DNA of 17,601 nucleotides from a virus. Taxonomy: Duplodnaviria; Heunggongvirae; Uroviricota; Caudoviricetes. The stretch is taken from IMG/VR virus record IMGVR_UViG_2695420739_000021. One strand, given 5' to 3'. A program made the translations under genes and the position numbers. The notes beneath the pieces are model-generated. The model did no database searches and was not told the origin of the DNA. It saw only the letters and a list, made by a program, of their open reading frames with translations. The stretch's first letter is position 1, and each line of letters begins with the position of its first letter. This document shows, piece by piece, positions 329 to 16,282 of this stretch.

Positions 329-342
329 GGGATTTTTGGTCC

Positions 343-1777: not shown

Positions 1778-1788
1778 AGTTCGCTACC

Positions 1789-2277: not shown

Positions 2278-2323
2278 GCAAAAACCTCGTTTTGAGGGGG
2301 TGTAACTTTTCGTGTAACTTTTT
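2048..2323. repeat. Cluster of GTAAC(T)TTT repeats inside and just upstream of terS (candidate pac site)
   Basis: Direct copies at about 2048, 2060, 2072, 2090, 2302, 2313 and inverted AGTTAC at about 2101 and 2113. Two copies lie upstream of the terS start codon, so not purely a coding-repeat effect. Confidence 0.35.
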
Positions 2324-2404
2324 TGAAAAGCAAAATTTTCTATGAATGAGACTGGGGGCGGTGTCCAGGGCGATCGACTTTCCGGCCGGAACACTCCCCC
2401 CCTG

Positions 2405-2566
2405 TCATTGCTCACCGAGTAACGAGATCAGGCCTTCAACTTCATCACTCAGCTTGTTTATTCGTGTCTCAAGCTCTGCGATCTTTTCCATCAATGGCGC
2501 TATGGTGTCTCTTGTTTCCTCGCCAATGGCTTTAATGATGCTTGCCTCGCGTTCTGTGATAGCCAT
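2405..2566 (-). CDS. Hypothetical small coiled-coil protein (53 aa)
   Basis: ATG 3 nt after the stop of the preceding 64-aa gene; MAITEREASIIKAIGEETRDTIAPLMEKIAELETRINKLSDEVEGLISLLGEQ. Not in ORF track. Confidence 0.3.
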   Translation of the reverse strand: MAITEREASIIKAIGEETRDTIAPLMEKIAELETRINKLSDEVEGLISLLGEQ

Positions 2567-2569
2567 TGT

Positions 2570-2764
2570 TTACGCCTCACTTGTTGCAATGCCCAGGCGT
2601 TCGCGTAACAGTACGCGCGCAAGATGCCCTATTGTTGGTGTTGCCGCCCTGCCGTAGATACCTGATTCATTCATCCGGCGCACAATATCGAACTGCAACT
2701 TTTTAAGCTCGTTAAGGATTTCATGATCAATCATCACGGTAGCGCTTTGCTTTATCTCTTCCAC
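2570..2764 (-). CDS. Hypothetical small protein (64 aa), first gene of packaging operon; possible DNA-binding
   Basis: GTG start at 2764 with AGGAG 8 nt upstream; sits after an AT-rich promoter-like region and the terminator of the preceding unit. Confidence 0.4.
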   Translation of the reverse strand: MEEIKQSATVMIDHEILNELKKLQFDIVRRMNESGIYGRAATPTIGHLARVLLRERLGIATSEA

Positions 2765-2852
2765 TTTGTTTTCTCCTGATACTTATCATTGCATAACCAG
2801 TATTTTCGATAGATTATCATTAATTAACCATATTTGAAGATATATGAGATCG

Positions 2853-2876
2853 AAAAAAAGCCGGATTGCTCCGGCT
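2853..2876 (-). terminator. Intrinsic terminator after the 81-aa gene
   Basis: Minus-strand hairpin GCCGGAGCAATCCGGC followed by U7 (plus strand: A-run 2853-2859, hairpin 2860-2875). Confidence 0.6.
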
Positions 2877-2894
2877 ATGTGCTCACTTCTTCGG

Positions 2895-3140
2895 TTATTC
2901 TCCAGCGCTTTTAACGTTGATGGTTGTTACCTGTTCCGCTTCGGCAATCTCCCGTTCTGTCAGCGTGGCAAAGTTTGCCGCCGCTGTGGTCATGAATGCG
3001 CTTATCAGTTCGGGATGCTCCTTCGCGTATCCTTCCCCCGCGTGGCGGTCTATCGTTCTGATTGCCACCTTTAAGGAAAGCTCTGTCATGTCTAACGCTT
3101 TATATTTTGGCGCTGTCTTATCTCTGGTTTTTCTGTTCAT
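2895..3140 (-). CDS. Hypothetical protein (81 aa), origin-adjacent
   Basis: ATG at 3140 directly abutting the iteron array; followed by the intrinsic terminator. Confidence 0.35.
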   Translation of the reverse strand: MNRKTRDKTAPKYKALDMTELSLKVAIRTIDRHAGEGYAKEHPELISAFMTTAAANFATLTEREIAEAEQVTTINVKSAGE

Positions 3141-3345
3141 TCCCCACTACTCCCCACTTTTGCTCCCCACTTTTTGAAATTACCCACCGTCTCCCCACCT
3201 CTTTTTTTTGTGATTCTAACGTTATGTTTTTCAATATGTTTTTTACTCCCCACTTTTTTGGGTATATACAGGTGGGAAAGTGGGTAATTATGTTTCAATT
3301 TTGTTAAATTCCCCACTCCCCCCACTTTTACTCCCCACTTTTTAC
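3141..3345. repeat. Replication origin candidate: iterons (C)TCCCCACTTTT plus AT-rich segment
   Basis: At least 8 direct copies (3141, 3150, 3163, 3191, 3245, 3310, 3319, 3331), 2 inverted (GTGGGAAAGTGGGTA at 3272-3286), and AT-rich stretch 3201-3245. Directly 3' of the rep gene. Confidence 0.6.
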
Positions 3346-4675
3346 AGCGGGCGCACGTCATCACCGTCAATAACGATTACGCCATCATTTTCCAGCTTGT
3401 ACAGCCAGCGCCGGAAGTGCTTCATCTCATACCCCAGCTTTTTCATATCGTCGCGGAGAAGGGCGATAGTGCACGCCTCCCCGTGTGCTGTTCGTGTTCT
3501 GATGCACTGCCATAGCGCGGCGTGATTCTCCGTCTTGTTCCCTGCCTCCTCGATGCGCTCCAGTTCAACGGGAGGGCGCGGCTTATCCACCACCACCAGC
3601 GACGTGATTAACTCCCCGTCAGCGTCGGTAAAAAGCTCCACCACGCGTAAGTCATATGCTGCTTCTTTGAGTTCCTCCGCGTCCTTCATTTTGGTACATG
3701 AGATAACCAGCGCTTCGCTGCCTGCGTCCTCCCTGCGTATCCGGTATTCGGCGTCCAGTGATGCACGAAATGCACTGGAACCACGCGCCCCCTTTGTTTC
3801 ATCCTTGCCGGAATGGTGAACCACCAGCACCGTTGCCCCTGTGCGCCGTTTCAGTTCGTCACACCCACGGATAAACGCCCCCATATCACGGGAATCATTT
3901 TCATCATTGCCGCCAAAGCAGCGCGCCAGCGTATCCAGAATAATCATTCGAACCGGTTTACCCGTTTCCCGTTCCACCTGACGGGCAGCGATAACCATTT
4001 CACGTGCACAACCTCCCAGGCTTTTACACGACGCGGAACACCTATACCGCCTTCACCAACCACATAGAGAACCGCACCATGTGCAACCCTGCGGCCTCCC
4101 CACTGGCGACCAGTGGCAACATGGCACGCCCACGATCCGGCAAGGAATGATTTATAGGACCCGCTAGCCCCGTATATGCTGCATAGCGATACCGCCGGAA
4201 TAATCCCCTTAACCACGTAATCCAGTTGCGTGTCGTATCCGGTAGATCCAACGCTCATCGGTAGCGTGGTTTTTCGCTGGTGGTTTTTTTCTTCCGCCGG
4301 CTCTTTCCCGCGCACCCGTTCCAGGTATTCGCGCCAGTTCTCCCGCATATGGCTGTGCATCCCTTCGGGGTAATAATTCGCATCAGTTACACCCGCCGCC
4401 GCCAGCTTGTGCGCAATGGCATTAATATTTGATGGCCTGATGTGGCCTGCCTTGTACAGCCGGACACAATAGCGCCCCTCGTCGATGATTCTCAGGTCTG
4501 CCAGTTCATCCAGTTGATCATCAGCCAGCACAACGGGAGGCACATTATCGCCAGCCAGTCGCCCGTCCTGTTCCTGCCACTGTTTCGCATGTGCCCAGGC
4601 ATCACTACCCGCAAAAATAATGACTTCGGTCATCTTGTCGTAAGGCTGTTTTTTTAAGTTCGGTGCGCTTTTCAT
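3342..4675 (-). pseudogene. Disrupted replication protein (AAA_25/RepA-like), split by 67-bp deletion
   Basis: Copy 2 has one 466-aa ORF; copy 1 is split into 3944..4675 (N-terminal, Walker A GASGSYKSF, frameshifted tail) and 3342..3998 (C-terminal, Walker B MIILD). Deletion at about 3999-4001. Confidence 0.7.
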
Positions 4676-4971
4676 TTCTTGCCCCTGAATCCGTTAATCA
4701 TGGTTTTCAGCTTCTGGATGTTTGCCCGTGCCCTGGCGTTGCTGGTGGGCACGTTATGCGGCGCGGTCTGTACCAGAGAAAAATCACGCCGGAACTGATA
4801 AACAGGCATCACGCAATCATATTCGTAACCTTCACGGCGGTAAGTTACGCACCGTCCCGCCACGCCCTTAATCATTACCGTGCCGCCGTACTGGTCGCGG
4901 TAAATATCACCGCGCGTAAATTTAGGGTGAGTGTTGCCACTGGCAGTTAAGCCAGAATATTTAAGTTTCAT
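4672..4971 (-). CDS. Hypothetical protein (99 aa), translationally coupled to rep
   Basis: ATG at 4971 with GGAG upstream; stop overlaps rep start (ATGA). Confidence 0.4.
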   Translation of the reverse strand: MKLKYSGLTASGNTHPKFTRGDIYRDQYGGTVMIKGVAGRCVTYRREGYEYDCVMPVYQFRRDFSLVQTAPHNVPTSNARARANIQKLKTMINGFRGKK

Positions 4972-4976
4972 TATTT

Positions 4977-5210
4977 TTATTCTCCGGTGTGCTGTTCGTT
5001 ATATCTGTCGTGCAATGTCTCTATTTCCTGCAACTCATTTATTACAGGCTCAAGAAGCGTTATTAATGCCGTGACAATTCTTGATTTTTGTTTGTCGCGT
5101 TCATTGTCGCCAAGTGTTTCAAGCCATATGCGCAATATTTCGTACATACCTTCAGCGTAAGCAAGGGCACTAAATGCGCGGTCTATTGTTTCGTGGTAAA
5201 TATCACGCAT
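4977..5210 (-). CDS. Small acidic helical protein (77 aa)
   Basis: ATG at 5210; net negative charge; overlaps stop of the upstream gene (TAATATG). Confidence 0.4.
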   Translation of the reverse strand: MRDIYHETIDRAFSALAYAEGMYEILRIWLETLGDNERDKQKSRIVTALITLLEPVINELQEIETLHDRYNEQHTGE

Positions 5211-5211
5211 A

Positions 5212-5433
5212 TTAATCCCCGTCCGTTGTTTTTCTTAAAACAGCTTCTGTCACGAAATCAGCATAGTTAGCGGCAATATCAAGAATATTTAGCCCTGTAT
5301 CTCTGTGCTCATCAGTGCAAAGAAAGAAAAAAGCCACCCGCATAATTTCAGATATTGACGAAAGCGCATCAGCCGCATCATCAGGAACGCCGGAAAATTC
5401 TTGTTTCAGGGAATTAAAACGATCATCACGCAT
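5212..5433 (-). CDS. Small acidic protein (73 aa), paralog of the next gene (PDDAADAL motif)
   Basis: Start MRDDRF with a G8 run as ribosome-binding site; overlaps the upstream gene (ATGCGTGA). Confidence 0.4.
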   Translation of the reverse strand: MRDDRFNSLKQEFSGVPDDAADALSSISEIMRVAFFFLCTDEHRDTGLNILDIAANYADFVTEAVLRKTTDGD

Positions 5434-5647
5434 AACCCCCCCCATTTTCACAATCAGCAACAAGAATATTTTTAGCGTCATTCAGCGACCGCGTTGCGAT
5501 GTATCGGATACATTCCAGGGCGAACTGTGTCCGGTCTTTCTGTTCTTCTCCCTGCGCAAGCTCTGCAGTGCATTCAATATCGATAAGCGCGTGCATCAGC
5601 GTAGTGAGCGCGTCGGCTGCTGCGTCCGGTGTGGTTTTATTGCACAT
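5426..5647 (-). CDS. Small acidic protein (73 aa), paralog (TPDAAADAL motif)
   Basis: Start MCNKTT with AGGAGG 7 nt upstream; overlaps the Icd-like stop. Confidence 0.4.
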   Translation of the reverse strand: MCNKTTPDAAADALTTLMHALIDIECTAELAQGEEQKDRTQFALECIRYIATRSLNDAKNILVADCENGGGYA

Positions 5648-6197
5648 GGCACACCTCCTGACGAATACGGGCGGCGAATACAGCAACACAACCGGACGGG
5701 CAACGGCTACGCGCTTCGCGTTCCGTCCAGGCGGTTACGTGGATGATTTGATGTTCTGACGCGCCAAAGATGATAAAGCGCCAGAGAAAGGCGGTTTGAG
5801 AATGTACAAGGGTAGGGATAGTAGCCATGTTGGCAGCCTCCTCAGTGTGGTTAAGATAACCGCCACCGGAAACGCCAATTTCGCTGGTGGCGGACTGTAC
5901 AGGGTTGGCGTAACCGGACACTGAAGAAACCGGCGCGGATTGCTCCGCCCCCGTACAGCCCACCATTGATAAGGTGTGACTATGCGGCACAAAAAAACAC
6001 GCGGGGCGCGTGTTATGCGCTTCAGTTTTGCCCAGGACGCCAATCCCGGCACCCGTTTTATGAGGTGCGCGGGAATCATAGCTATTTTCGACACTGGCGA
6101 TCAACTGGTTTTTTTCTCCGATATTCAGGGCCAGAAAACGCCACACAAAGGCCGTTTGTGTGTGTACAAGGTGTGGTATATGATTTACGGCAACCAT
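5637..6197 (-). CDS. Icd-like (Ash-family) protein, tandem two-domain reading frame; internal start at 5828 gives a 63-aa Icd-like product
   Basis: Two paralogous segments share HLVH(T/S)QTAF(V/L)WRF; distal one ends ...TEREARSR...VFAARIRQEV, like P4-type Icd-like proteins. No stop between them. GAGGAGG precedes the internal ATG at 5828; GGAG precedes ATG at 6197. Confidence 0.45.
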   Translation of the reverse strand: MVAVNHIPHLVHTQTAFVWRFLALNIGEKNQLIASVENSYDSRAPHKTGAGIGVLGKTEAHNTRPACFFVPHSHTLSMVGCTGAEQSAPVSSVSGYANPVQSATSEIGVSGGGYLNHTEEAANMATIPTLVHSQTAFLWRFIIFGASEHQIIHVTAWTEREARSRCPSGCVAVFAARIRQEVCHVQ

Positions 6198-6285
6198 AAC
6201 GGCTCCTAGTTTACGTTGTTGGTTAGACGCCCCGTATGTGTTCCCAGCACTGCGGGGCGTTGATTTTTGTGTAATGGCAAGTACA

Positions 6286-6329
6286 ATGGTAATTACCATG
6301 TAGGTATAGTAATGAAGGGTAATTACCAT
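6286..6329. promoter_or_regulatory. Paired palindromic operators in divergent promoter region
   Basis: Perfect 14-bp palindrome ATGGTAATTACCAT (6286-6299) and 12-bp GGTAATTACCAT (6318-6329), centres 30 bp apart; second overlaps the RHH start codon. Possible TATAGT -10 at 6305-6310. Confidence 0.5.
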
Positions 6330-6501
6330 GTCAACACCATTAGAAAAACGTTCGCCTCCATACCAAATGCGATTACCGGAAGACTTCAGAGCGCAGCTAG
6401 AAGAAGCAGCTAAGGCCGATGGCGACACATCTTTAGCCACTTGGATTAAACGCGTTCTCCGCAAAGAATTACAGCAACGCGGCATAGAACCCAAAGGATA
6501 A
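6328..6501 (+). CDS. Ribbon-helix-helix (Arc/CopG-like) DNA-binding protein, 57 aa; putative element repressor
   Basis: MSTPLEKRSPPYQMRLPEDFRAQLEEAAKADGDTSLATWIKRVLRKELQQRGIEPKG fits the Arc-type RHH pattern. Divergent from the Icd/rep operon. Not in ORF track. Confidence 0.5.
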   Translation: MSTPLEKRSPPYQMRLPEDFRAQLEEAAKADGDTSLATWIKRVLRKELQQRGIEPKG

Positions 6502-6543
6502 AAACTATCAGCGCCGTGGTGTGAGGTATTACGGCGCATTGCT

Positions 6544-6732
6544 ATGCAGGACAACACAATGACCGATAAAGAATTGACCAAAACATTATCACCGGCACGG
6601 AAAAGACGGCGCAGAAAGATAGAGCATGAATCAGAAAGATTCGCGCCATGTGCTTTTGCCCTTGAGCAATTCCTTAAAGAGTACAGGGAAAAGCGCTCAT
6701 TGCAGGTATGGCAACGAACTGAACCAGACTGA
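6544..6732 (+). CDS. Hypothetical basic small protein (62 aa)
   Basis: ORF between RHH gene and the plus-strand terminator; weak ribosome-binding site; arginine-rich stretch KRRRRK. Confidence 0.25.
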   Translation: MQDNTMTDKELTKTLSPARKRRRRKIEHESERFAPCAFALEQFLKEYREKRSLQVWQRTEPD

Positions 6733-6827
6733 TTGCATTGCCCACCAGCCTGATAGCGGCTATCATCCCCGTGCTTATGTTTGGGATCACATACACATAA
6801 GGCGCAGCGGGTTAATTGTTCAGAAAG

Positions 6828-6854
6828 GCGGCTCCATATCGGGGCCGCTTTTTT
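6828..6854 (+). terminator. Intrinsic terminator at convergence of RHH unit and alpA
   Basis: Stem GCGGCTCC / GGGGCCGC (one G-U pair), 5-nt loop, then T6. Confidence 0.55.
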
Positions 6855-6880
6855 CGTGTTTGTCATATCTGTGATACCCG

Positions 6881-7087
6881 TTAAGCAGCCGTTCCGCGTG
6901 CTTCCTCTTCGCGTTCTTTCTGCCAGGACAACACATCATCCTCATACCATCCGCGACGGCGTAAACCAACGCGAAAACCCTGCGGAAATTCTCCGGCGTT
7001 GATCATGCTTTGCAGCGTGCTGTCTGCCTTGATGTGGATAATTTTTTTTACTTCCTGGCGAAAGATAATTTTTCTGATTGCTTCCAT
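6881..7087 (-). CDS. alpA: AlpA-family regulator / excisionase-like protein (68 aa)
   Basis: ...STLQSMINAGEFPQGFRVGLRRRGWYEDDVLSWQ matches the AlpA-family HTH pattern. Confidence 0.75.
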   Translation of the reverse strand: MEAIRKIIFRQEVKKIIHIKADSTLQSMINAGEFPQGFRVGLRRRGWYEDDVLSWQKEREEEARGTAA

Positions 7088-7103
7088 CGTGATTTACCTT
7101 GTG

Positions 7104-7191
7104 AATCCGGTGTATTCCGGTGACAAATACGGTAAATCATCGGATATGGGTAAAAACAGTTCCCACCGTTTTTAAACGGTATACACCGTTT
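7104..7191. promoter_or_regulatory. alpA upstream control region: TCCGGTG repeats and ACCGTTT/AAACGGT inverted repeats
   Basis: ATCCGGTG (7104-7111) and TTCCGGTGA (7114-7122) spaced 10 bp; inverted repeats at 7165-7180 and 7174-7191. The TCCGGTG motif recurs next to the att core. Confidence 0.35.
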
Positions 7192-7220
7192 TTTATATTG
7201 ATGATTTGAAATGGAATTAT

Positions 7221-7243
7221 AAAAAAAGCGGCATTTCTGCCGC
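7221..7243 (-). terminator. Intrinsic terminator of the int / 83-aa unit
   Basis: Minus-strand hairpin GCGGCAGAAATGCCGC followed by U7. Confidence 0.6.
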
Positions 7244-7254
7244 TTCCAGGATTG

Positions 7255-7506
7255 TTACCGCCATTTTTTGGGCCTGCCTCCGATCTTCATAGATGCCGGA
7301 CGTACGACCTTATCAATACTTACCGCCAGATTTCTGGAAGCGCCACGGGATACCAGAAAATCTACTACCTGTTTTTTTGATGGGGCCGTCGTTCTGTCCT
7401 CCGGATCGTAGGTTGACCAAAATTCATGCTGAACCATCAGGGCCAGTTGCAGCCCGTCGCAATTGCATCTGATATTTTTTTGCATCTTAACGGTTTCATG
7501 TTTCAC
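7255..7506 (-). CDS. Hypothetical int-linked small protein (83 aa)
   Basis: ORF downstream of int on the same strand, before the terminator; GTG start at 7506 (alternative ATG at M8); TATAAT motif about 28 nt upstream. Confidence 0.4.
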   Translation of the reverse strand: MKHETVKMQKNIRCNCDGLQLALMVQHEFWSTYDPEDRTTAPSKKQVVDFLVSRGASRNLAVSIDKVVRPASMKIGGRPKKWR

Positions 7507-7583
7507 GGCCTTGTCGTTAAATTTGATGCAATTATACGACGGTTTTACATGGTTTTCGTAGTTTTTACTGGTTTTCTGTACAG

Positions 7584-8825
7584 CTACACGGCTCGGATAC
7601 CCCTTTTACCACTGGCGAGGGTTACGCCCGTCGCCGCAGCCTCGACAAATTCGCCCCACCAGCGCATCAGCACGATGCGTTTTTCTATGTAGTTGCTCCG
7701 GTTGTATGCCCGTCTAACTTCGTTGGTGTCGACGTGGGCAAGTGCCGCCTCTATTACGTCCGGCTCGAATCCTTCCTCGTTCGCTGCTGTGCTGAATATG
7801 GCGCGTAATCCATGAGACACCAGCACGCCAGCGAATCCCATACGCCGCAATGCTGCGTTAGCTGTCTGGCTGTTCATCGGCTGCTGTGGGTCTTTCAGAC
7901 TTGGGAAAACGTAATTGCGGTGGTGGCTGATTGGTTTCATGGCCTCCAGCACCGCCATAGCCTGACCGGAAAGCGGGATAACGTGATCCCTGCGCATCTT
8001 CATGCGTCCGGCAGGTATCGTCCATTGCTTCGCGTCCAGGTTGATTTCATCCCACCGCGTTGATGACGCTTCGGCGGGACGGGTTACGGTCAGTAACTGC
8101 CATTCAATCAGTAATCTGGTCTGCCGTTCTGTTGCCGATACTGATAAAGCCTGCATAAGCTCGGGCAGCTGTTCGGGGCGGATTGTTGGCATATGTTTTT
8201 TTACAGGTGAGGGAAACGCCTTACGCACATTCATAGCCGGATTGGCATCAATCAGCCCACTGTTGGCGGCGTAATCCATTACCTCATTAACGCGCTGTAA
8301 AACCCGCTTGAGTGTTTCCAGGTTGCCGCGCTCCTTGATGGGGGTAAGCACTTCAACGAACCTTCGGGCGGTGAGGGTATCTATTGGCGTGTTGCCGATG
8401 AACGGGAATACATATTTATCCAGCGAACGCCAGATGTCTTTAATCGTGTTGGGGGCCAGATTCTGGCTGATTTTCACCTGGTACCATGCCGCCGCCACAT
8501 TTTCGAACGTGTTCCCTTGTCTTCGGGCCTCTGTCTCTCTTTTTTGCCTCTCGTGGTCCTGCGGGTCAGTTCCGGCACTGATTAACGTCCTGTACTCGCT
8601 ACGGCGTTTTCTGGCATCAGCCAGGGAAACATCTTCAAGCGATCCAAAACTCAGCAATATTCTTTTTTTGTCCGATGGTCGGTAGTAGGAAAATCTCCAG
8701 AGTTTTGATCCAGACGGTTTGACCAGGAGAAAAAGCCCTCCGCCGTCCTGCAGGGTGTACTCCTTTTGCGCTGGTCTGGCTGCTTTGATCTGCACTGTGG
8801 TTAATGGGTGTGTTTTTCTCGCCAT
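7584..8825 (-). CDS. int: Tyrosine integrase, P4-type (413 aa)
   Basis: N-terminus MARKTHPLTTVQIKAARPAQKEYTLQDGGGLFLLVKPSGSKLWRFSYY is typical of P4-like integrases; ATG at 8825 preferred over the upstream GTG. Confidence 0.85.
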   Translation of the reverse strand: MARKTHPLTTVQIKAARPAQKEYTLQDGGGLFLLVKPSGSKLWRFSYYRPSDKKRILLSFGSLEDVSLADARKRRSEYRTLISAGTDPQDHERQKRETEARRQGNTFENVAAAWYQVKISQNLAPNTIKDIWRSLDKYVFPFIGNTPIDTLTARRFVEVLTPIKERGNLETLKRVLQRVNEVMDYAANSGLIDANPAMNVRKAFPSPVKKHMPTIRPEQLPELMQALSVSATERQTRLLIEWQLLTVTRPAEASSTRWDEINLDAKQWTIPAGRMKMRRDHVIPLSGQAMAVLEAMKPISHHRNYVFPSLKDPQQPMNSQTANAALRRMGFAGVLVSHGLRAIFSTAANEEGFEPDVIEAALAHVDTNEVRRAYNRSNYIEKRIVLMRWWGEFVEAAATGVTLASGKRGIRAV

Positions 8826-8857
8826 ATGTCTATGATTCCACACGAAAAAACAGGGTT

Positions 8858-8912
8858 TTAGTTATACGGCTTTAGTTATACGCCAGCCCGTATAACTAAA
8901 CGTATAACTAAA
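8858..8912. repeat. Four copies of CGTATAACTAAA (two inverted, two direct): putative arm-type sites, P arm
   Basis: TTTAGTTATACG at about 8858 and 8871; CGTATAACTAAA at about 8890 and 8901. Same motif as 411-434. Confidence 0.45.
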
Positions 8913-8923
8913 AAATCCGGCTG

Positions 8924-9037
8924 ATAGCTTATAAATCCGGTGATGTTCGGTGACTAAAAAACATAAAAAAACCCGCCAATCAAGTGATTAGCGGGTTATC
9001 CCTGTCTTATCCGGTGCTTTCCGGTGATATCCGGTGG
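8924..9037. repeat. TCCGGTG direct repeats, three phased at 10 bp, next to att core (candidate directionality-factor sites)
   Basis: Copies at about 8924 (variant), 8935, 8946 (variant), 9009, 9019, 9029; the last three are exactly 10 bp apart. Confidence 0.4.
8962..8997 (-). terminator. Intrinsic terminator between the copy-2 capsid operon and int
   Basis: Minus-strand stem AACCCGC / GCGGGTT with 14-nt loop followed by U7. Confidence 0.5.
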
Positions 9038-9119
9038 GCGATTTGGTCGGCACGAGAGTAGTTTAATTGAGTATGTAACTACATGATTTTAAATAGTATG
9101 CTTGATTCAACTTTTAAAC

Positions 9120-9143
9120 CGTATAACTAAACGTATAACTAAA
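9120..9143. repeat. Tandem CGTATAACTAAA x2 (P' arm of junction attP)
   Basis: Copy-2 equivalent of 411-434; with 8858-9037 and the core near 9051 this forms a full attP-like site. Confidence 0.45.
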
Positions 9144-9411
9144 ATCATTTGCTGAAAAAGTGTACAATTTAAATGCGAGTTTTCCTGTGGTAAAAGCTCC
9201 AACCGTAACGATGTTCGTTATGGTTGCCTTGATGGTCTGCGTGGTCATTATGACCATTCAGGATTTGAAGGGTGACGCTTCCGACTTCCTCAAATTGAGG
9301 TTTCCGAAAATATCAGCGGGTTAGCGATTAATCTGACCATTAATTAAACTGCGAAAATTTCGTAATTATCCCGATATGGGGATCACCATATCGGGATTGA
9401 TGCCGGAAAAA

Positions 9412-10338
9412 TCAGCTTTTCGCCAGAACGGTGACGGCCTTATCGAGTTTTTGCCATCCGCAATAGGTGATTGCCCTGAACGCTGTAGCGTCATTCTGGA
9501 AAAGGCTAACCGTCCCTGATTCGGTTTTTATTACCGCCTCATCAGTTGGGGTTATAACCGTGGCTTCAACGTTAATAATCAGCTTTTGAGCGTCTATCAG
9601 CATCATGCGATCCGCCTGTTCGCTCACAATTACCGGTATTCTCAAAAGCTCTATCTGCCAGAACTCAGCATCAGTAAGCTGTAAGGCGTTTTCTACGGGC
9701 AAGATTAGCGACGACGTGGCAAGCGTGTTACCGTTCGCTATGTGCTTTTTGAAAAGCTCTATGAAGTTTTCGGCCTCATCAGCACCATTAAGCACGCCCT
9801 CAGGGGATACGCCCGCCACCTCCTGGTCACTGGAAAGAAATTTTTTATCTATTTCTTTCACCGATTCCGATGTGATCAAGTCTCTGATCGCTGAATTGGT
9901 ACCAGGGGTGCTAAATTTGATTAGCTCGTTATTCAGCATCACAATAGCGCCAAGTTTGCACAGTTTTAGCGCACTTTCGTTTACTTCTCCCTCTTTGACA
10001 GGGATTTCTTCGGCTTCTTTAAGCCATTTACTACCCTTGCCTGATATTGACTGCAATTTTGCGCCAAACGGAAGATTCAGCGCGCTGCTGATTAGCTTGC
10101 CTGGTACAGACTGCGAAAAAATATACTCGCCAAGCTCTCTTACTATCGGCTCTGCCACCAGCGACGGCATATTATCCGTAGTCATTCCGGCAACAATGGA
10201 TTTTTCAAGAAATTTCGATACTGCCGGATCATTTTTTTTCGTCATTTCAATTGCGTCTGCATGGCTGAATTTACACGATGTAAGCACGCTGGCGGCGCGA
10301 ACTGCCGACACGCCTTTCATGTTTTTAGAAATCATCAT
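9412..10338 (-). CDS. HK97-fold major capsid protein-like (copy 2)
   Basis: Identical translation to 703..1629. Confidence 0.5.
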   Translation of the reverse strand: MMISKNMKGVSAVRAASVLTSCKFSHADAIEMTKKNDPAVSKFLEKSIVAGMTTDNMPSLVAEPIVRELGEYIFSQSVPGKLISSALNLPFGAKLQSISGKGSKWLKEAEEIPVKEGEVNESALKLCKLGAIVMLNNELIKFSTPGTNSAIRDLITSESVKEIDKKFLSSDQEVAGVSPEGVLNGADEAENFIELFKKHIANGNTLATSSLILPVENALQLTDAEFWQIELLRIPVIVSEQADRMMLIDAQKLIINVEATVITPTDEAVIKTESGTVSLFQNDATAFRAITYCGWQKLDKAVTVLAKS

Positions 10339-10486
10339 CTTCTTCCTCCTGGTAACATGGGGTTAGGGTTTCGTGAAAATATGGCATCAGAACAGCGGCA
10401 GCCTGTAACCGTATTTCGGTTGGCTGCTGCTTGTCGTTCATGATTTCCGTGAGTACATCAATAGGGTCTGTGATGTATTCGCTCAT
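10325..10486 (-). CDS. Hypothetical small protein with acidic tail (copy 2)
   Basis: Copy of 1616..1777 at +8709. Confidence 0.35.
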   Translation of the reverse strand: MSEYITDPIDVLTEIMNDKQQPTEIRLQAAAVLMPYFHETLTPCYQEEEDDDF

Positions 10487-10497
10487 AGTTCGCTACC

Positions 10498-10986
10498 TCA
10501 GTGTTTTAAGCCAGTTGGTGGCTTAGGGATGGGGAACCGATTTGAGGAGACATTAGCGGCATTGAGTTTTTTAACCTCTTTTTTCCCAATGCTGCCGATC
10601 TTGCGGTGGGTGAACTGGGCCAGCTTAAACGCGGCATCTAAAGCCAGTTTTGGATCTGTGTCCATGTTGTCAATCAGTATCCTGCCCATTGCTTTGATGG
10701 GGTCGGGTAGGCCGTTATCCATCATCTCAATGGTGTTAATTGATGCCCGTTCCGGTGTAACTTTTTCGGTAACTTTCTTTGTAACTTTTTTCGGTTTTGT
10801 AACCTGAAAAGTTACATCAGAAGTTACAGCCTTAAGATACTTTTTCACCTCCGGATCATTGGATAGCTGCCAGCCTTTAACCCTTGCAGTCTTTTCGCTG
10901 TATCCCGCATGTATCGCGGCTTCCGTTGGATTTGTGCCCTTTGATAACGCATCAGCAAACCGCTTTTTTTTGGTCGTTAATGCCAT
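10498..10986 (-). CDS. terS: Terminase small subunit (copy 2)
   Basis: Identical to 1789..2277; ATG confirmed at 10984-10986 (plus-strand CAT). Confidence 0.7.
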   Translation of the reverse strand: MALTTKKKRFADALSKGTNPTEAAIHAGYSEKTARVKGWQLSNDPEVKKYLKAVTSDVTFQVTKPKKVTKKVTEKVTPERASINTIEMMDNGLPDPIKAMGRILIDNMDTDPKLALDAAFKLAQFTHRKIGSIGKKEVKKLNAANVSSNRFPIPKPPTGLKH

Positions 10987-11113
10987 GCAAAAACCTCGTT
11001 TTGAGGGGGTGTAACTTTTCGTGTAACTTTTTTGAAAAGCAAAATTTTCTATGAATGAGACTGGGGGCGGTGTCCAGGGCGATCGACTTTCCGGCCGGAA
11101 CACTCCCCCCCTG

Positions 11114-11275
11114 TCATTGCTCACCGAGTAACGAGATCAGGCCTTCAACTTCATCACTCAGCTTGTTTATTCGTGTCTCAAGCTCTGCGATCTTTTCCAT
11201 CAATGGCGCTATGGTGTCTCTTGTTTCCTCGCCAATGGCTTTAATGATGCTTGCCTCGCGTTCTGTGATAGCCAT
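11114..11275 (-). CDS. Hypothetical coiled-coil protein, 53 aa (copy 2)
   Basis: Copy of 2405..2566. Confidence 0.3.
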   Translation of the reverse strand: MAITEREASIIKAIGEETRDTIAPLMEKIAELETRINKLSDEVEGLISLLGEQ

Positions 11276-11278
11276 TGT

Positions 11279-11473
11279 TTACGCCTCACTTGTTGCAATG
11301 CCCAGGCGTTCGCGTAACAGTACGCGCGCAAGATGCCCTATTGTTGGTGTTGCCGCCCTGCCGTAGATACCTGATTCATTCATCCGGCGCACAATATCGA
11401 ACTGCAACTTTTTAAGCTCGTTAAGGATTTCATGATCAATCATCACGGTAGCGCTTTGCTTTATCTCTTCCAC
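11279..11473 (-). CDS. Hypothetical small protein, 64 aa (copy 2)
   Basis: Identical translation to 2570..2764. Confidence 0.4.
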   Translation of the reverse strand: MEEIKQSATVMIDHEILNELKKLQFDIVRRMNESGIYGRAATPTIGHLARVLLRERLGIATSEA

Positions 11474-11603
11474 TTTGTTTTCTCCTGATACTTATCATTG
11501 CATAACCAGTATTTTCGATAGATTATCATTAATTAACCATATTTGAAGATATATGAGATCGAAAAAAAGCCGGATTGCTCCGGCTATGTGCTCACTTCTT
11601 CGG

Positions 11604-11849
11604 TTATTCTCCAGCGCTTTTAACGTTGATGGTTGTTACCTGTTCCGCTTCGGCAATCTCCCGTTCTGTCAGCGTGGCAAAGTTTGCCGCCGCTGTGGTC
11701 ATGAATGCGCTTATCAGTTCGGGATGCTCCTTCGCGTATCCTTCCCCCGCGTGGCGGTCTATCGTTCTGATTGCCACCTTTAAGGAAAGCTCTGTCATGT
11801 CTAACGCTTTATATTTTGGCGCTGTCTTATCTCTGGTTTTTCTGTTCAT
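11604..11849 (-). CDS. Hypothetical origin-adjacent protein, 81 aa (copy 2)
   Basis: Identical translation to 2895..3140. Confidence 0.35.
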   Translation of the reverse strand: MNRKTRDKTAPKYKALDMTELSLKVAIRTIDRHAGEGYAKEHPELISAFMTTAAANFATLTEREIAEAEQVTTINVKSAGE

Positions 11850-12054
11850 TCCCCACTACTCCCCACTTTTGCTCCCCACTTTTTGAAATTACCCACCGTC
11901 TCCCCACCTCTTTTTTTTGTGATTCTAACGTTATGTTTTTCAATATGTTTTTTACTCCCCACTTTTTTGGGTATATACAGGTGGGAAAGTGGGTAATTAT
12001 GTTTCAATTTTGTTAAATTCCCCACTCCCCCCACTTTTACTCCCCACTTTTTAC
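11850..12054. repeat. Replication origin iterons (copy 2)
   Basis: Same TCCCCACTTTT iteron array as 3141..3345. Confidence 0.6.
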
Positions 12055-13451
12055 AGCGGGCGCACGTCATCACCGTCAATAACGATTACGCCATCATTTT
12101 CCAGCTTGTACAGCCAGCGCCGGAAGTGCTTCATCTCATACCCCAGCTTTTTCATATCGTCGCGGAGAAGGGCGATAGTGCACGCCTCCCCGTGTGCTGT
12201 TCGTGTTCTGATGCACTGCCATAGCGCGGCGTGATTCTCCGTCTTGTTCCCTGCCTCCTCGATGCGCTCCAGTTCAACGGGAGGGCGCGGCTTATCCACC
12301 ACCACCAGCGACGTGATTAACTCCCCGTCAGCGTCGGTAAAAAGCTCCACCACGCGTAAGTCATATGCTGCTTCTTTGAGTTCCTCCGCGTCCTTCATTT
12401 TGGTACATGAGATAACCAGCGCTTCGCTGCCTGCGTCCTCCCTGCGTATCCGGTATTCGGCGTCCAGTGATGCACGAAATGCACTGGAACCACGCGCCCC
12501 CTTTGTTTCATCCTTGCCGGAATGGTGAACCACCAGCACCGTTGCCCCTGTGCGCCGTTTCAGTTCGTCACACCCACGGATAAACGCCCCCATATCACGG
12601 GAATCATTTTCATCATTGCCGCCAAAGCAGCGCGCCAGCGTATCCAGAATAATCATTCGAACCGGTTTACCCGTTTCCCGTTCCACCTGACGGGCAGCGA
12701 TAACCATTTCCTCAACATCAAGCGGGGCAGCCGGAAAGATGGGACGGTTTACCAGATACAGATTTTTCACCTGCTCACCGTGCACAACCTCCCAGGCTTT
12801 TACACGACGCGGAACGCCGATACCGCCTTCACCAACCACATAGAGAACAGCGCCATGCGCCACCCTGCGGCCTCCCCACTGGCGGCCCGTGGAAACGTGA
12901 CACGCCCACGAACCCGCAAGGAACGATTTATATGAACCGCTCGCCCCGTATATGCTGCACAGCGATACCGCCGGAATAATCCCCTTAACCACGTAATCAA
13001 GTTGTGTGTCGTATCCGGCAGATCCCACGCTCATTGGTAGCGTGGTTTTTCGCTGGTGGTGTTTTTCTTCCCCTGGCTTTTTCCCCCGCTCCCGTTCCAG
13101 ATATTCGCGCCAGTTCTCCCGCTTCTGGCTGTGCATCCCTTCGGGGTAATAATTCGCATCAGTTACACCCGCCGCCGCCAGCTTGTGCGCAATGGCATTA
13201 ATATTTGATGGCCTGATGTGGCCTGCCTTGTACAGCCGGACACAATAGCGCCCCTCGTCGATGATTCTCAGGTCTGCCAGTTCATCCAGTTGATCATCAG
13301 CCAGCACAACGGGAGGCACATTATCGCCAGCCAGTCGCCCGTCCTGTTCCTGCCACTGTTTCGCATGTGCCCAGGCATCACTACCCGCAAAAATAATGAC
13401 TTCGGTCATCTTGTCGTAAGGCTGTTTTTTTAAGTTCGGTGCGCTTTTCAT
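12051..13451 (-). CDS. Replication protein, AAA_25/RepA-DnaB-like ATPase with C-terminal winged-helix region (466 aa, intact)
   Basis: Single ORF with Walker A (GASGSYKSF), Walker B (VRMIILDTLARCFGG), VLVVHHSGKDETKGARGSSA motif and basic C-terminal region; ATG at 13451; origin immediately 3'. Confidence 0.75.
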   Translation of the reverse strand: MKSAPNLKKQPYDKMTEVIIFAGSDAWAHAKQWQEQDGRLAGDNVPPVVLADDQLDELADLRIIDEGRYCVRLYKAGHIRPSNINAIAHKLAAAGVTDANYYPEGMHSQKRENWREYLERERGKKPGEEKHHQRKTTLPMSVGSAGYDTQLDYVVKGIIPAVSLCSIYGASGSYKSFLAGSWACHVSTGRQWGGRRVAHGAVLYVVGEGGIGVPRRVKAWEVVHGEQVKNLYLVNRPIFPAAPLDVEEMVIAARQVERETGKPVRMIILDTLARCFGGNDENDSRDMGAFIRGCDELKRRTGATVLVVHHSGKDETKGARGSSAFRASLDAEYRIRREDAGSEALVISCTKMKDAEELKEAAYDLRVVELFTDADGELITSLVVVDKPRPPVELERIEEAGNKTENHAALWQCIRTRTAHGEACTIALLRDDMKKLGYEMKHFRRWLYKLENDGVIVIDGDDVRPL

Positions 13452-13747
13452 TTCTTGCCCCTGAATCCGTTAAACATGGTTTTCAGCTTCTGGATGTTTG
13501 CCCGTGCCCTGGCGTTGCTGGTGGGCACGTTATGCGGCGCGGTCTGTACCAGAGAAAAATCACGCCGGAACTGATAAACAGGCATCACGCAATCATATTC
13601 GTAACCTTCACGGCGGTAAGTTACGCACCGTCCCGCCACGCCCTTAATCATTACCGTGCCGCCGTACTGGTCGCGGTAAATATCACCGCGCGTAAATTTA
13701 GGGTGAGTGTTGCCACTGGCAGTTAAGCCAGAATATTTAAGTTTCAT
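13448..13747 (-). CDS. Hypothetical protein, 99 aa, coupled to rep (copy 2)
   Basis: Copy of 4672..4971 with one substitution (I to F). Confidence 0.4.
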   Translation of the reverse strand: MKLKYSGLTASGNTHPKFTRGDIYRDQYGGTVMIKGVAGRCVTYRREGYEYDCVMPVYQFRRDFSLVQTAPHNVPTSNARARANIQKLKTMFNGFRGKK

Positions 13748-13752
13748 TATTT

Positions 13753-13986
13753 TTATTCTCCGGTGTGCTGTTCGTTATATCTGTCGTGCAATGTCTCTAT
13801 TTCCTGCAACTCATTTATTACAGGCTCAAGAAGCGTTATTAATGCCGTGACAATTCTTGATTTTTGTTTGTCGCGTTCATTGTCGCCAAGTGTTTCAAGC
13901 CATATGCGCAATATTTCGTACATACCTTCAGCGTAAGCAAGGGCACTAAATGCGCGGTCTATTGTTTCGTGGTAAATATCACGCAT
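13753..13986 (-). CDS. Small acidic helical protein, 77 aa (copy 2)
   Basis: Identical translation to 4977..5210. Confidence 0.4.
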   Translation of the reverse strand: MRDIYHETIDRAFSALAYAEGMYEILRIWLETLGDNERDKQKSRIVTALITLLEPVINELQEIETLHDRYNEQHTGE

Positions 13987-13987
13987 A

Positions 13988-14209
13988 TTAATCCCCGTCC
14001 GTTGTTTTTCTTAAAACAGCTTCTGTCACGAAATCAGCATAGTTAGCGGCAATATCAAGAATATTTAGCCCTGTATCTCTGTGCTCATCAGTGCAAAGAA
14101 AGAAAAAAGCCACCCGCATAATTTCAGATATTGACGAAAGCGCATCAGCCGCATCATCAGGAACGCCGGAAAATTCTTGTTTCAGGGAATTAAAACGATC
14201 ATCACGCAT
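13988..14209 (-). CDS. Small acidic protein, 73 aa (copy 2)
   Basis: Copy of 5212..5433. Confidence 0.4.
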   Translation of the reverse strand: MRDDRFNSLKQEFSGVPDDAADALSSISEIMRVAFFFLCTDEHRDTGLNILDIAANYADFVTEAVLRKTTDGD

Positions 14210-14423
14210 AACCCCCCCCATTTTCACAATCAGCAACAAGAATATTTTTAGCGTCATTCAGCGACCGCGTTGCGATGTATCGGATACATTCCAGGGCGAA
14301 CTGTGTCCGGTCTTTCTGTTCTTCTCCCTGCGCAAGCTCTGCAGTGCATTCAATATCGATAAGCGCGTGCATCAGCGTAGTGAGCGCGTCGGCTGCTGCG
14401 TCCGGTGTGGTTTTATTGCACAT
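14202..14423 (-). CDS. Small acidic protein, 73 aa (copy 2)
   Basis: Copy of 5426..5647. Confidence 0.4.
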   Translation of the reverse strand: MCNKTTPDAAADALTTLMHALIDIECTAELAQGEEQKDRTQFALECIRYIATRSLNDAKNILVADCENGGGYA

Positions 14424-14973
14424 GGCACACCTCCTGACGAATACGGGCGGCGAATACAGCAACACAACCGGACGGGCAACGGCTACGCGCTTCGCGTTCC
14501 GTCCAGGCGGTTACGTGGATGATTTGATGTTCTGACGCGCCAAAGATGATAAAGCGCCAGAGAAAGGCGGTTTGAGAATGTACAAGGGTAGGGATAGTAG
14601 CCATGTTGGCAGCCTCCTCAGTGTGGTTAAGATAACCGCCACCGGAAACGCCAATTTCGCTGGTGGCGGACTGTACAGGGTTGGCGTAACCGGACACTGA
14701 AGAAACCGGCGCGGATTGCTCCGCCCCCGTACAGCCCACCATTGATAAGGTGTGACTATGCGGCACAAAAAAACACGCGGGGCGCGTGTTATGCGCTTCA
14801 GTTTTGCCCAGGACGCCAATCCCGGCACCCGTTTTATGAGGTGCGCGGGAATCATAGCTATTTTCGACACTGGCGATCAACTGGTTTTTTTCTCCGATAT
14901 TCAGGGCCAGAAAACGCCACACAAAGGCCGTTTGTGTGTGTACAAGGTGTGGTATATGATTTACGGCAACCAT
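14413..14973 (-). CDS. Icd-like (Ash-family) tandem two-domain protein (copy 2)
   Basis: Copy of 5637..6197; internal start at 14604. Confidence 0.45.
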   Translation of the reverse strand: MVAVNHIPHLVHTQTAFVWRFLALNIGEKNQLIASVENSYDSRAPHKTGAGIGVLGKTEAHNTRPACFFVPHSHTLSMVGCTGAEQSAPVSSVSGYANPVQSATSEIGVSGGGYLNHTEEAANMATIPTLVHSQTAFLWRFIIFGASEHQIIHVTAWTEREARSRCPSGCVAVFAARIRQEVCHVQ

Positions 14974-15061
14974 AACGGCTCCTAGTTTACGTTGTTGGTT
15001 AGACGCCCCGTATGTGTTCCCAGCACTGCGGGGCGTTGATTTTTGTGTAATGGCAAGTACA

Positions 15062-15105
15062 ATGGTAATTACCATGTAGGTATAGTAATGAAGGGTAATT
15101 ACCAT
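15062..15105. promoter_or_regulatory. Paired palindromic operators (copy 2)
   Basis: Copy of 6286..6329. Confidence 0.5.
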
Positions 15106-15277
15106 GTCAACACCATTAGAAAAACGTTCGCCTCCATACCAAATGCGATTACCGGAAGACTTCAGAGCGCAGCTAGAAGAAGCAGCTAAGGCCGATGGCG
15201 ACACATCTTTAGCCACTTGGATTAAACGCGTTCTCCGCAAAGAATTACAGCAACGCGGCATAGAACCCAAAGGATAA
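15104..15277 (+). CDS. Ribbon-helix-helix DNA-binding protein (copy 2)
   Basis: Copy of 6328..6501; ATG confirmed at 15104. Confidence 0.5.
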   Translation: MSTPLEKRSPPYQMRLPEDFRAQLEEAAKADGDTSLATWIKRVLRKELQQRGIEPKG

Positions 15278-15319
15278 AAACTATCAGCGCCGTGGTGTGA
15301 GGTATTACGGCGCATTGCT

Positions 15320-15508
15320 ATGCAGGACAACACAATGACCGATAAAGAATTGACCAAAACATTATCACCGGCACGGAAAAGACGGCGCAGAAAGATAGAG
15401 CATGAATCAGAAAGATTCGCGCCATGTGCTTTTGCCCTTGAGCAATTCCTTAAAGAGTACAGGGAAAAGCGCTCATTGCAGGTATGGCAACGAACTGAAC
15501 CAGACTGA
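15320..15508 (+). CDS. Hypothetical basic small protein, 62 aa (copy 2)
   Basis: Copy of 6544..6732. Confidence 0.25.
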   Translation: MQDNTMTDKELTKTLSPARKRRRRKIEHESERFAPCAFALEQFLKEYREKRSLQVWQRTEPD

Positions 15509-15656
15509 TTGCATTGCCCACCAGCCTGATAGCGGCTATCATCCCCGTGCTTATGTTTGGGATCACATACACATAAGGCGCAGCGGGTTAATTGTTCAGA
15601 AAGGCGGCTCCATATCGGGGCCGCTTTTTTCGTGTTTGTCATATCTGTGATACCCG

Positions 15657-15863
15657 TTAAGCAGCCGTTCCGCGTGCTTCCTCTTCGCGTTCTTTCTGCC
15701 AGGACAACACATCATCCTCATACCATCCGCGACGGCGTAAACCAACGCGAAAACCCTGCGGAAATTCTCCGGCGTTGATCATGCTTTGCAGCGTGCTGTC
15801 TGCCTTGATGTGGATAATTTTTTTTACTTCCTGGCGAAAGATAATTTTTCTGATTGCTTCCAT
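15657..15863 (-). CDS. alpA: AlpA-family regulator (copy 2)
   Basis: Identical translation to 6881..7087. Confidence 0.75.
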   Translation of the reverse strand: MEAIRKIIFRQEVKKIIHIKADSTLQSMINAGEFPQGFRVGLRRRGWYEDDVLSWQKEREEEARGTAA

Positions 15864-16030
15864 CGTGATTTACCTTGTGAATCCGGTGTATTCCGGTGAC
15901 AAATACGGTAAATCATCGGATATGGGTAAAAACAGTTCCCACCGTTTTTAAACGGTATACACCGTTTTTTATATTGATGATTTGAAATGGAATTATAAAA
16001 AAAGCGGCATTTCTGCCGCTTCCAGGATTG

Positions 16031-16282
16031 TTACCGCCATTTTTTGGGCCTGCCTCCGATCTTCATAGATGCCGGACGTACGACCTTATCAATACTTACC
16101 GCCAGATTTCTGGAAGCGCCACGGGATACCAGAAAATCTACTACCTGTTTTTTTGATGGGGCCGTCGTTCTGTCCTCCGGATCGTAGGTTGACCAAAATT
16201 CATGCTGAACCATCAGGGCCAGTTGCAGCCCGTCGCAATTGCATCTGATATTTTTTTGCATCTTAACGGTTTCATGTTTCAC
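16031..16282 (-). CDS. Hypothetical int-linked small protein, 83 aa (copy 2)
   Basis: Identical translation to 7255..7506. Confidence 0.4.
   Translation of the reverse strand: MKHETVKMQKNIRCNCDGLQLALMVQHEFWSTYDPEDRTTAPSKKQVVDFLVSRGASRNLAVSIDKVVRPASMKIGGRPKKWR

Follow-up and report, generated by a model that had tools for sequence, protein, structure and literature searches.

The 17,601-nt sequence of the virus record IMGVR_UViG_2695420739_000021 (Caudoviricetes), the whole of which is called the window here, carries two head-to-tail copies, in tandem, of a phage-inducible chromosomal island (PICI) next to a chromosomal flank. The order in the window is yejO, the attachment site attL, copy 1, a junction consisting of a P arm, a core and a P' arm, and copy 2; attR and the tRNA gene proL lie directly beyond the window end. 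The element belongs to the catalogued Gram-negative PICI family EcCI11368.1, which resides between yejO and proL. The junction region at positions 8857–9143 is very likely the attP of this family, in tandem at proL and used by a P4/CP4-like integrase. The features that define this arrangement are listed below, where relatives are cited by their L numbers.

1–235, plus strand: 3' end of yejO (autotransporter), the left chromosomal flank, identified by megablast against complete Escherichia coli genomes; its TGA at 233–235 was placed via homology to L001
335–349: damaged attL core, TTTGGTC--CACGAGAG, without the GG found in attP, attB and attR, with host flank on its left and P' flank on its right
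335–9058, genes on the minus strand: copy 1, a PICI of about 8.7 kb from core to core, with gene content as in the single-copy islands L001 and L043
411–434, plus strand: P' arm-type pair of copy 1 at attL, two direct 12-mers, exact motif match
7584–8825, minus strand: integrase of copy 1, 413 aa, a P4/CP4-like heterobivalent tyrosine recombinase by its Pfam domains, ATG at 8825
8857–8882, minus strand: P-arm sites nearest int, two 12-mers (8857–8868 and 8871–8882), 32–57 bp upstream of the int ATG, position kept in relatives
8889–8912, plus strand: core-side pair of P-arm sites, 12-mers that abut each other, 129 bp away from the core
9042–9058: attP core TTTGGTCGGCACGAGAG, 17 bp, identical in the K-12 attB and in the attR of L001 and L040
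9120–9143, plus strand: P' arm-type pair of copy 2, two direct 12-mers, starting 61 bp from the core, with equivalents in L003, L007 and L008
9042–17601, minus strand: copy 2 of the PICI, repA intact; the window stops at the start codon of its integrase
16360–17601, minus strand: integrase of copy 2, start codon at the window end

The attachment sites align in register around the core. In this alignment, attB of K-12 reads cttgggatt-TTTGGTCGGCACGAGAG-gatttgaacc and attP of the window (9042–9058) reads ggtgggcga-TTTGGTCGGCACGAGAG-tagtttaattg, while attR of L001 and L040 consists of the P flank, the 17-bp core and the tRNA body. The same core is thus found in attP, attB and attR, and attL carries it with a 2-bp deletion. 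Positions 9044–9058 are the reverse complement of the last 15 nt of the proL tRNA-Pro(GGG), and tRNA-Pro(GGG), proL, is also the gene adjacent to the island in single-copy relatives. Within the window, ARAGORN found no whole tRNA. In L001, it found a complete tRNA-Pro(GGG) directly next to the P arm; at this junction beside int the tRNA is intact, its 3' end being restored. On this alignment, the true core is TTTGGTCGGCACGAGAG at 9042–9058, the 3' end of proL. Because the crossover maps to about 9051–9052, as discussed below, the element probably supplies only the last 7 nt of the tRNA plus a terminator.

A preliminary description of this DNA, made from its letters alone, had already proposed that the junction is an attP with the order P arm, core and P' arm and that the left end of the window is an attL. 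The first proposal is borne out by the in-register alignment of the att sites and the second by the damaged core between host flank and P' flank. The P' arm and adjacent sequence, which were said to recur at the left end, do so over 335–4001, which corresponds to 9042–12710, and the suggested comparison with an uninterrupted attB returned the identical 17-bp core from the empty K-12 site. The core itself, however, had been misplaced. Only a weak 7-bp similarity had been seen between the host flank and the P arm, whereas the similarity covers TTTGGTC and CACGAGAG, interrupted by the 2-bp deletion, with TTTGGTC as the left part of the 17-bp core. No tRNA had been recognized, but 15 tRNA-Pro(GGG) bases are present at the junction, and the crossover, which had been called undefined, can be narrowed to about 9051–9052.

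The core had instead been thought to carry a GTAGTT/AACTAC inverted repeat:

9058–9082: GTAGTT (9058–9063)/AACTAC (9077–9082) inverted repeat, starting at the last base of the core and running into the P' arm

The repeat is present at these positions, but it lies in the P' arm and not in the core. The 375 bp of 8826–9200 contain 32 inverted pairs of at least 6 nt, and GTAGTT/AACTAC is not among the 25 longest. Moreover, its right half varies in the relatives (AACTAC, AACCAC, AACTTC and AACTGC) whereas GTAGTT is constant. The repeat was rejected as a core feature, because its occurrence does not exceed chance and its two halves are not conserved together. The constant GTAGTT half probably belongs to the C' core-type region.

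The 12-mer CGTATAACTAAA occurs eight times without mismatch in the window, on the plus strand at 411, 423, 8889, 8901, 9120 and 9132 and on the minus strand at 8857 and 8871, and six of the eight copies flank the junction of the two island copies. Allowing up to 2 mismatches, the number of matches was also 8, compared with 1.18 expected from 200 shuffles, of which the largest gave 4. The four P-arm sites, two inverted and two direct, lie 32–87 bp upstream of the int ATG, and 8889–8912 together with 8857–8882 form a near-palindrome. The preliminary description was correct in counting four 12-mers upstream of int; that two of them are inverted relative to the other two was not stated. Similarly, the tandem pair that it placed 70 bp beyond the core does exist and starts 61 bp after the true core. 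The 12-mers are unlike the core in sequence, they are found on both sides of it, and their distances to it, 118–129 bp on one side and about 61 bp on the other, are kept across genera. These 12-mers are predicted to be arm-type sites bound by the N-terminal domain of the integrase, and the arm-type reading of the preliminary description is supported by the layout kept across genera and by the co-variation of the motif with the integrase N-domain.

EcCI11368.1 and its relatives were catalogued previously at the "yejM-luxR" site in Table S1 of Fillol-Salom et al. (2018) (ISME J, PMC6092414). In that table, the "att site core" is given as TTT(G)TAGTTATACGTTT(G)TAGTTATACGG and EcCI11368.1 as AP010953 3041660-3050231. 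These coordinates and the repeat map onto L043 (NC_013361.1), in which they fall exactly on the arm-site pairs at 3041661–3041684 and 3050207–3050230, equivalent to window 8889–8912 and 411–434. Compared with these published limits, the true core lies farther outwards, by 146 bp at the int end (the proL 3' end) and by about 70 bp at the opposite end. As in Table S1 (PMC6092414), the 25-bp tandem repeat TTTAGTTATACGTTTAGTTATACGG could be taken as the att core or crossover site, given that the pair is directly repeated at both island ends and that the published coordinates end on it. This is barely credible. The motif is missing from the empty K-12 site. At the int end, a further 129 bp of island-specific DNA separate the pair from the 17-bp core that the island has in common with attB, and at the opposite end 61 bp do so. 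Beside int there is also an inverted form of the pair, as would not be expected of a crossover core, and the repeat differs between lineages that have the same target tRNA. The reading of TTTAGTTATACGTTTAGTTATACGG as core is in addition contradicted by the alignment of attB, attL and attR. By these comparisons, the label "att site core" in Table S1 is wrong and names an arm-site pair. The preliminary description, although wrong in its placement of the core, was better than the published label in reading the 12-mers as arm sites.

Integrases that are 67–78% identical to that of the window are found at tRNA-Pro(GGG) in Phytobacter, Pantoea, Erwinia, Brenneria and Rosenbergiella. The layout in these relatives is the tRNA 3' end (core), a short spacer, a terminator hairpin, 2 + 2 inverted repeats and the int ATG, and the arm layout is kept in relatives of six other genera, including Edwardsiella. 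The distance from the first arm site to the core is 118–119 bp in other genera, 129 bp in E. coli and 119 bp in L035. It is 129 bp in E. coli because of one extra 10-bp TCCGGTG unit, which L035 does not have. A metagenome contig, L003, carries the attP of a diverged relative with the same 2 + 2, core, 2 layout. In Edwardsiella hoshinae (L007, 9900–9970 and 20214–20237), a 75%-identical integrase is associated with the E. coli-type arm motif on both arms at a non-tRNA site, and the island ends share about 10 bp, TTCAGTAGTA, as a different core. Judged from these ends, the core target of L007 is changed and its arm specificity is unchanged.

Three classes of the repeat were identified. E. coli and the closest group have CGTATAACTAAA, Erwinia psidii and Rosenbergiella have CTAGTCCYAAA, and one Brenneria sp. 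has TATGCCTAAA. In the motif-switched relatives, the integrase N-domain is 50–55% identical to that of the window protein and the rest of the protein 71–79%. In contrast, the N-domain identity is 71–81% in L004–L007 (other genera) and in the metagenome contig L003, and 60.6% in the truncated L013. The P' arm of Erwinia psidii, which lies about 9 kb from int, also has the motif pair of its own lineage, 60 bp from a second copy of the core. Since this distant P' arm switches too, simple linkage to int cannot explain the switch.

Two further arrangements were seen among these relatives. Beyond the P' arm of L003, 1150–1290 contain four tandem CCTGTCCCAC units and inverted GTGGGACAAG units, which are iteron-like and may be a replication origin. 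In Rosenbergiella epipactidis (L011, 9671–9800), a tRNA-Pro ahead of the P arm is represented by its 3' half only, and AT-rich DNA with TTTAG-type repeats follows; this may be a junction of two different elements stacked at one tRNA.

As an alternative, a protein different from the integrase might bind the 12-mers, which would then be replication iterons or else operators or promoter elements of int or of a regulator nearby, and their presence on both sides of the core would be incidental. Four of them occupy the stretch 32–87 bp upstream of the int ATG in which a promoter has to lie, and the element encodes an AlpA-like DNA-binding protein. Nevertheless, we regard this as very unlikely, because a pair is also found at the far end of the element, conserved about 61 bp from the core and without an int promoter, because the spacing to the core is kept across genera at 118–119 bp, or at 129 bp with the one extra 10-bp repeat, and because the motif switches track the arm-binding domain of the integrase specifically. 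A double role as arm site and operator is expected, and it is compatible with the 12-mers being arm-type sites.

Within the core, strand exchange most likely takes place around 9051–9052, the left end of CACGAGAG, or immediately to the right. In the window, attL lacks the GG and the core at the junction is perfect, and L040, its closest single-copy relative, has the same GG-less attL together with a perfect attR. A perfect junction beside a GG-less attL is what would result if the GG positions travel with the P side and the exchange occurs to their right. Moreover, L033 (CP077491.1, 9760–10003 and about 18400–18560; listed together with L048) has the same island, its integrase identical, at a secondary site. 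The interrupted gene there belongs to a lambdoid prophage and bears the annotation SASA-family esterase or DUF6645. Compared with the uninterrupted target, 9051–9058 of the core are found with P' and 9042–9051 with P in L033, and only the TG dinucleotide at 9051–9052 is common to target and core. The attL deletions described below abut this position as well.

As 7 bp is the usual overlap length and TTTGGTC is 7 bp long and is the part of the core that stays intact in every attL variant, strand exchange could instead take place in the left core (9042–9048), the 0–4 bp attL variants then being heritable polymorphisms of the own attP of each island. We consider this unlikely. It needs an extra assumption for the perfect window junction, given the GG-less attL of both the window and its closest single-copy relative. 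In L033, 9042–9050 stayed with the P arm and 9051–9058 with the P' arm. In addition, the -2 variant is found with different island types and host flanks.

A model with a single 7-bp overlap and simple 3'-end trimming was also tried for the attL series and the 2-nt loss in L033. It did not fit, as the implied cuts are about 1 nt apart.

The attL deletions form a series that affects four bases, TCGG (window 9047–9050 in the intact core), between TTTGG and CACGAGAG. The alleles were counted by megablast of exact 30–34-mers, consisting of host flank, variable bases and the start of P', against 5426 complete E. coli genomes:

attL with TCGG (full): 14 genomes
attL with TCG: 32 genomes
attL with TC: 95 genomes
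attL with T: 2 genomes
attL with none of the four bases: 149 genomes

Among the 292 carriers, attL is perfect in only about 5%, and about 95% have deletions of 1–4 bp in this one four-base stretch. CACGAGAG was always kept, and attR was perfect in every locus inspected; the attL sites of the series include those of the window, L001 and L025–L043. A gapped pattern for the attL variants gave one match in viral contigs, too few for a survey. Different attL alleles are found on one type of host flank, and one allele is found on different flank and island types, which suggests several independent events. The deletions may be scars left by the integrase, or may result from selection for immobilisation or from plain decay. 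Our tentative suggestion, which should be taken as rather doubtful, is that they are integrase scars, formed by abortive cleavage and trimming at the edge of the overlap in the displaced host 3' end of proL.

The two island copies of the window are nearly the same. Positions 335–4001 and 9042–12710 have no mismatch and one 2-base gap, and 4000–8825 and 12775–17601 are 99.3% identical. The differences comprise 33 substitutions within 4002–4349, a 67-bp deletion at 4001 and one substitution at 4698 (13474 in copy 2). The 67-bp deletion frameshifts and breaks the repA helicase of copy 1, which looks to be left replication-defective. The 4001–4349 patch of copy 1, compared with 12711–13125 of copy 2, resembles a conversion tract from another repA allele. 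Because the two copies are not identical, a trivial duplication during assembly is unlikely. Over 8560 bp, copy 2 has 99.93% identity to the island of L040, a single-copy relative whose host flank is also the same, with a single mismatch in 4001 nt.

Integrase-mediated recombination is the most likely source of the tandem, starting from a strain with a single resident copy and a damaged attL. A second copy could have integrated into attL or attR of the resident, or sister chromosomes could have recombined attL with attR. Since the window and the single-copy relative have the damaged attL in common, integration of the island as a dimer is less likely.

The tandem is rare. Its junction was found in 0 of the 5426 complete E. 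coli genomes, and exact attP-junction patterns were found neither in viral contigs nor in GTDB species representatives. The search of metagenomes with the exact attP-junction pattern retrieved one contig, the diverged relative L003. BLAST with the attP region gave nothing in the phage collection and just a partial match, within a 1.4-Mb record, in the plasmid collection. Look-ups of exact proteins (integrase, the 409-aa open reading frame (ORF) and the capsid-like protein) for a further tandem returned single-copy islands only. The absence of the junction from all complete E. coli genomes would also be expected of an assembly artefact in which related islands from different loci, or a collapsed repeat, had been joined and attP was a computational chimera. 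Many strains have several related islands, the query matching up to 7 places per genome, and at least one island is at a second locus (L033). Such an artefact is still quite improbable. The junction is exactly what integrase-mediated recombination predicts, namely P arm, perfect core and P' arm; the copies differ just in one 350-bp patch and the 67-bp deletion and are not two diverged islands; and an independent contig from a diverged relative (L003) carries an attP as well. Were the tandem an artefact after all, the attP reconstructed here would still be the right one for the excised element.

At the attP, the C-terminal domains of the integrase would cut and exchange strands within the 17-bp core, while its N-domains would bridge to the four P-arm sites (8857–8912) and the two P' sites (9120–9143). 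By analogy with IntS of KplE1 and Int of P4, integrase bound to the P-arm sites probably represses int. Further features of the region that might contribute to its working are as follows.

301–328, minus strand: hairpin followed by a U-run; the fold of 288–341 has -15.8 kcal/mol and z = -4.62, with 0 of 200 shuffles as stable
8970–8997, minus strand: intrinsic terminator in the P arm, from the terminator scan; fold z = -3.5, with an equivalent hairpin in all relatives
9010–9036, plus strand: three TCCGGTG repeats in 10-bp phase beside the core in the P arm, from the direct-repeat search; L035 has one unit fewer

The hairpin at 301–328 directly follows proL in the empty K-12 site. It is probably the native proL terminator, now parted from the tRNA by the inserted elements. 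In attR, the 3' end of proL is followed 45 bp downstream by the terminator equivalent to 8970–8997, which would there replace the displaced native one. At the junction in the window, the 8970–8997 terminator would stop transcription coming from copy 2 before it reaches int of copy 1. The only perfect match to the consensus of integration host factor (IHF) in the window, 8978–8990, is in the loop of this terminator, and a match with 1 mismatch at 9076–9088 (minus strand) overlaps the AACTAC half of the inverted repeat. The window contains 11 matches to the IHF pattern, compared with 18.8 expected, which is below chance.

The TCCGGTG repeats are candidate sites for an accessory factor or for an AlpA/Vis-like recombination directionality factor (RDF), as suggested by their position and phasing. 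One unit accounts for the change from 129 to 119 bp between core and arm, about one helical turn. The repeats are not conserved in the other genera examined. Besides 9010–9036, window 8935–8953 is noted in connection with the TCCGGTG repeats. An Rfam search of 8800–9420 gave nothing meaningful.

Several points weigh against the attP assignment and the workings proposed for it. Binding, cleavage and recombination by the window integrase are deduced from sequence comparison. The attR of the tandem falls outside the window, and the physical reality of the tandem depends on one sequence, as the junction is absent from the 5426 E. coli genomes, the viral contigs and the GTDB representatives. The co-variation of the P' arm depends on one locus with a switched motif (L008). 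One junction of L033 has lost 2 nt, so this locus is not a clean cleavage map. Finally, the scan of 8700–9450 for sigma-70 consensus promoters was empty, and for this reason the argument for autoregulation comes wholly from the position of the P-arm sites. The layout of the site, the identity of its core with attB, attR and the tRNA, its conservation across genera and the co-variation of motif and N-domain are direct observations.

Single copies of the island are found between yejO and the tRNA-Pro(GGG) gene proL in many complete E. coli genomes, with int adjoining the tRNA. In its locus, its size of about 8.7 kb and its gene set, the element agrees with the catalogued islands, and it has no full set of phage structural genes. 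Its genes are int, an alpA-like gene, an Ash/Icd-like region and genes for DUF4222, a RepA/AAA_25 helicase, TerS and a capsid-like protein. For EcCICFT073, and not for EcCI11368.1, helper-phage-dependent induction, excision, replication and packaging were shown (PMC6092414).

The integrase protein is identical across thousands of assemblies. It contains the Pfam domains Arm-DNA-bind_3 (E = 4.6e-23), Phage_int_M and Phage_integrase. Its N-domain matches the solved structures 3JU0 and 3JTZ of CP4/P4-like integrases, and its central domain matches the solved CPS-53 integrase domain 2KJ8. The catalytic motifs TRPAE, HGLR, LAH (AH) and RRAY (AY) can be read from its translation, and the Pfam match to the catalytic domain spans profile positions 3–170 of 172. 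The other protein of possible relevance to recombination is small:

6881–7087, minus strand: 68-aa AlpA/Vis-like helix-turn-helix protein, PHROG "excisionase and transcriptional regulator", E = 2.5e-6

Its match to Pfam Phage_AlpA is weak, below the curated cut-off. The protein is a candidate regulator and RDF.

Inside the 409-aa Ash/Icd-like ORF of each copy (5883–6068 and 14659–14844, minus strand), Rfam matches to C4 antisense RNA (77.6 bits) and isrK (66 bits) were found, and RefSeq labels this stretch as pseudogene fragments in relatives. The 409-aa ORF may be no real gene, and the island may use RNA immunity of the P4/P1 type.

The assignment of the island to the P4-like satellites was rejected, its replication protein being a RepA/AAA_25 helicase. 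None of the P4-specific families (alpha primase-helicase, sid, psu, delta and epsilon) was hit among the 10 ORFs scanned, which include only part of the smaller ORFs. The island and P4 have only the integrase type, an AlpA/Vis-like protein and a C4/CI-type RNA in common.

In the left flank, the yejO match to complete E. coli genomes consists of two pieces, covering 1849 bp of the record and 1200 bp of the query. Compared with O103 and O26 strains, the 3' region of yejO in the window is shorter by about 650 bp and has an in-frame stop at 97–99. The yejO gene is degraded in the strain of the window and likewise in L040.

The kind of site described here is known from P4, KplE1 and lambda-type attP, and the element is catalogued; the site is ordinary for its class, which is well understood. 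The islands of the EcCI11368.1 family have the same locus and gene content as those of the window, and copy 2 is >99.9% identical to single-copy islands. They differ in that the window has two tandem copies, an arrangement found in 0 of the 5426 complete genomes.

The attP, Int and Vis of P4, as well as its integration into a tRNA-Leu gene, were reportedly described by Pierson and Kahn in 1987 and by Cali and colleagues in 2004. Similar to P4, the island has an integrase of Arm-DNA-bind_3 architecture, a core at a tRNA 3' end and repeated arm sites on both sides of the core. Its int also reads away from the adjacent att, with arm sites overlapping the upstream region of int, and it also encodes a protein of the AlpA/Vis family and a C4/CI-type antisense RNA. 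Different from P4 are its target tRNA, its core and the sequence of its arm sites. Int and Vis repress int of P4 (PMC2951348, citing Piazzolla et al., 2006).

For IntS/TorI of KplE1 (CPS-53)/HK620 at argW, Int and the RDF repress int, the promoter of which overlaps the att region (Panis et al., 2010, PMC2951348). The island is similar to KplE1 in that its integrase gene adjoins a tRNA and its int promoter region overlaps an att arm. The arm-type sites of the KplE1 Int have a conserved TAAA, and all three motif classes of the island contain CTAAA. In KplE1, however, the arm that overlaps the int promoter is named attL/P', and there are five TorI sites, whereas in the island the TCCGGTG repeats are candidate RDF sites.

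The order of elements in the attP of lambda is P1, P2, H1, X, F, H2, C-O-C', H' and P'1-3. Similar to lambda, the island has arm sites at roughly 60–90 bp on one side and 110–190 bp on the other, in mixed orientations and with AT-rich, bendable DNA between arm and core. It has four P-arm and two P' sites, whereas lambda has two and three. Also different from lambda, the core of the island is in a tRNA gene, a terminator hairpin is embedded in its P arm, and its IHF matches are at chance level.

The results fix the true attachment site, the 3' end of proL with its 17-bp core, of a satellite family that is very widespread in E. coli, Shigella and Enterobacterales, and the catalogued boundaries of its islands are too short by about 146 bp and 70 bp. 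They also reveal a natural switch of arm-site specificity within one integrase lineage with the same tRNA target, which is useful for the engineering of orthogonal integrases. The attL series offers a lead on the cut position of the integrase and on the dependence of a host tRNA upon satellites. If the crossover is right of TCGG, the deleted bases are host-derived, and excision in about 95% of the carriers would rebuild proL with a truncated acceptor stem. If this is true, the chromosome would rely on the island for a functional tRNA-Pro(GGG) and the island may be partly locked in place, while copy 2 of the tandem, which regains two perfect cores, would be the mobile copy.

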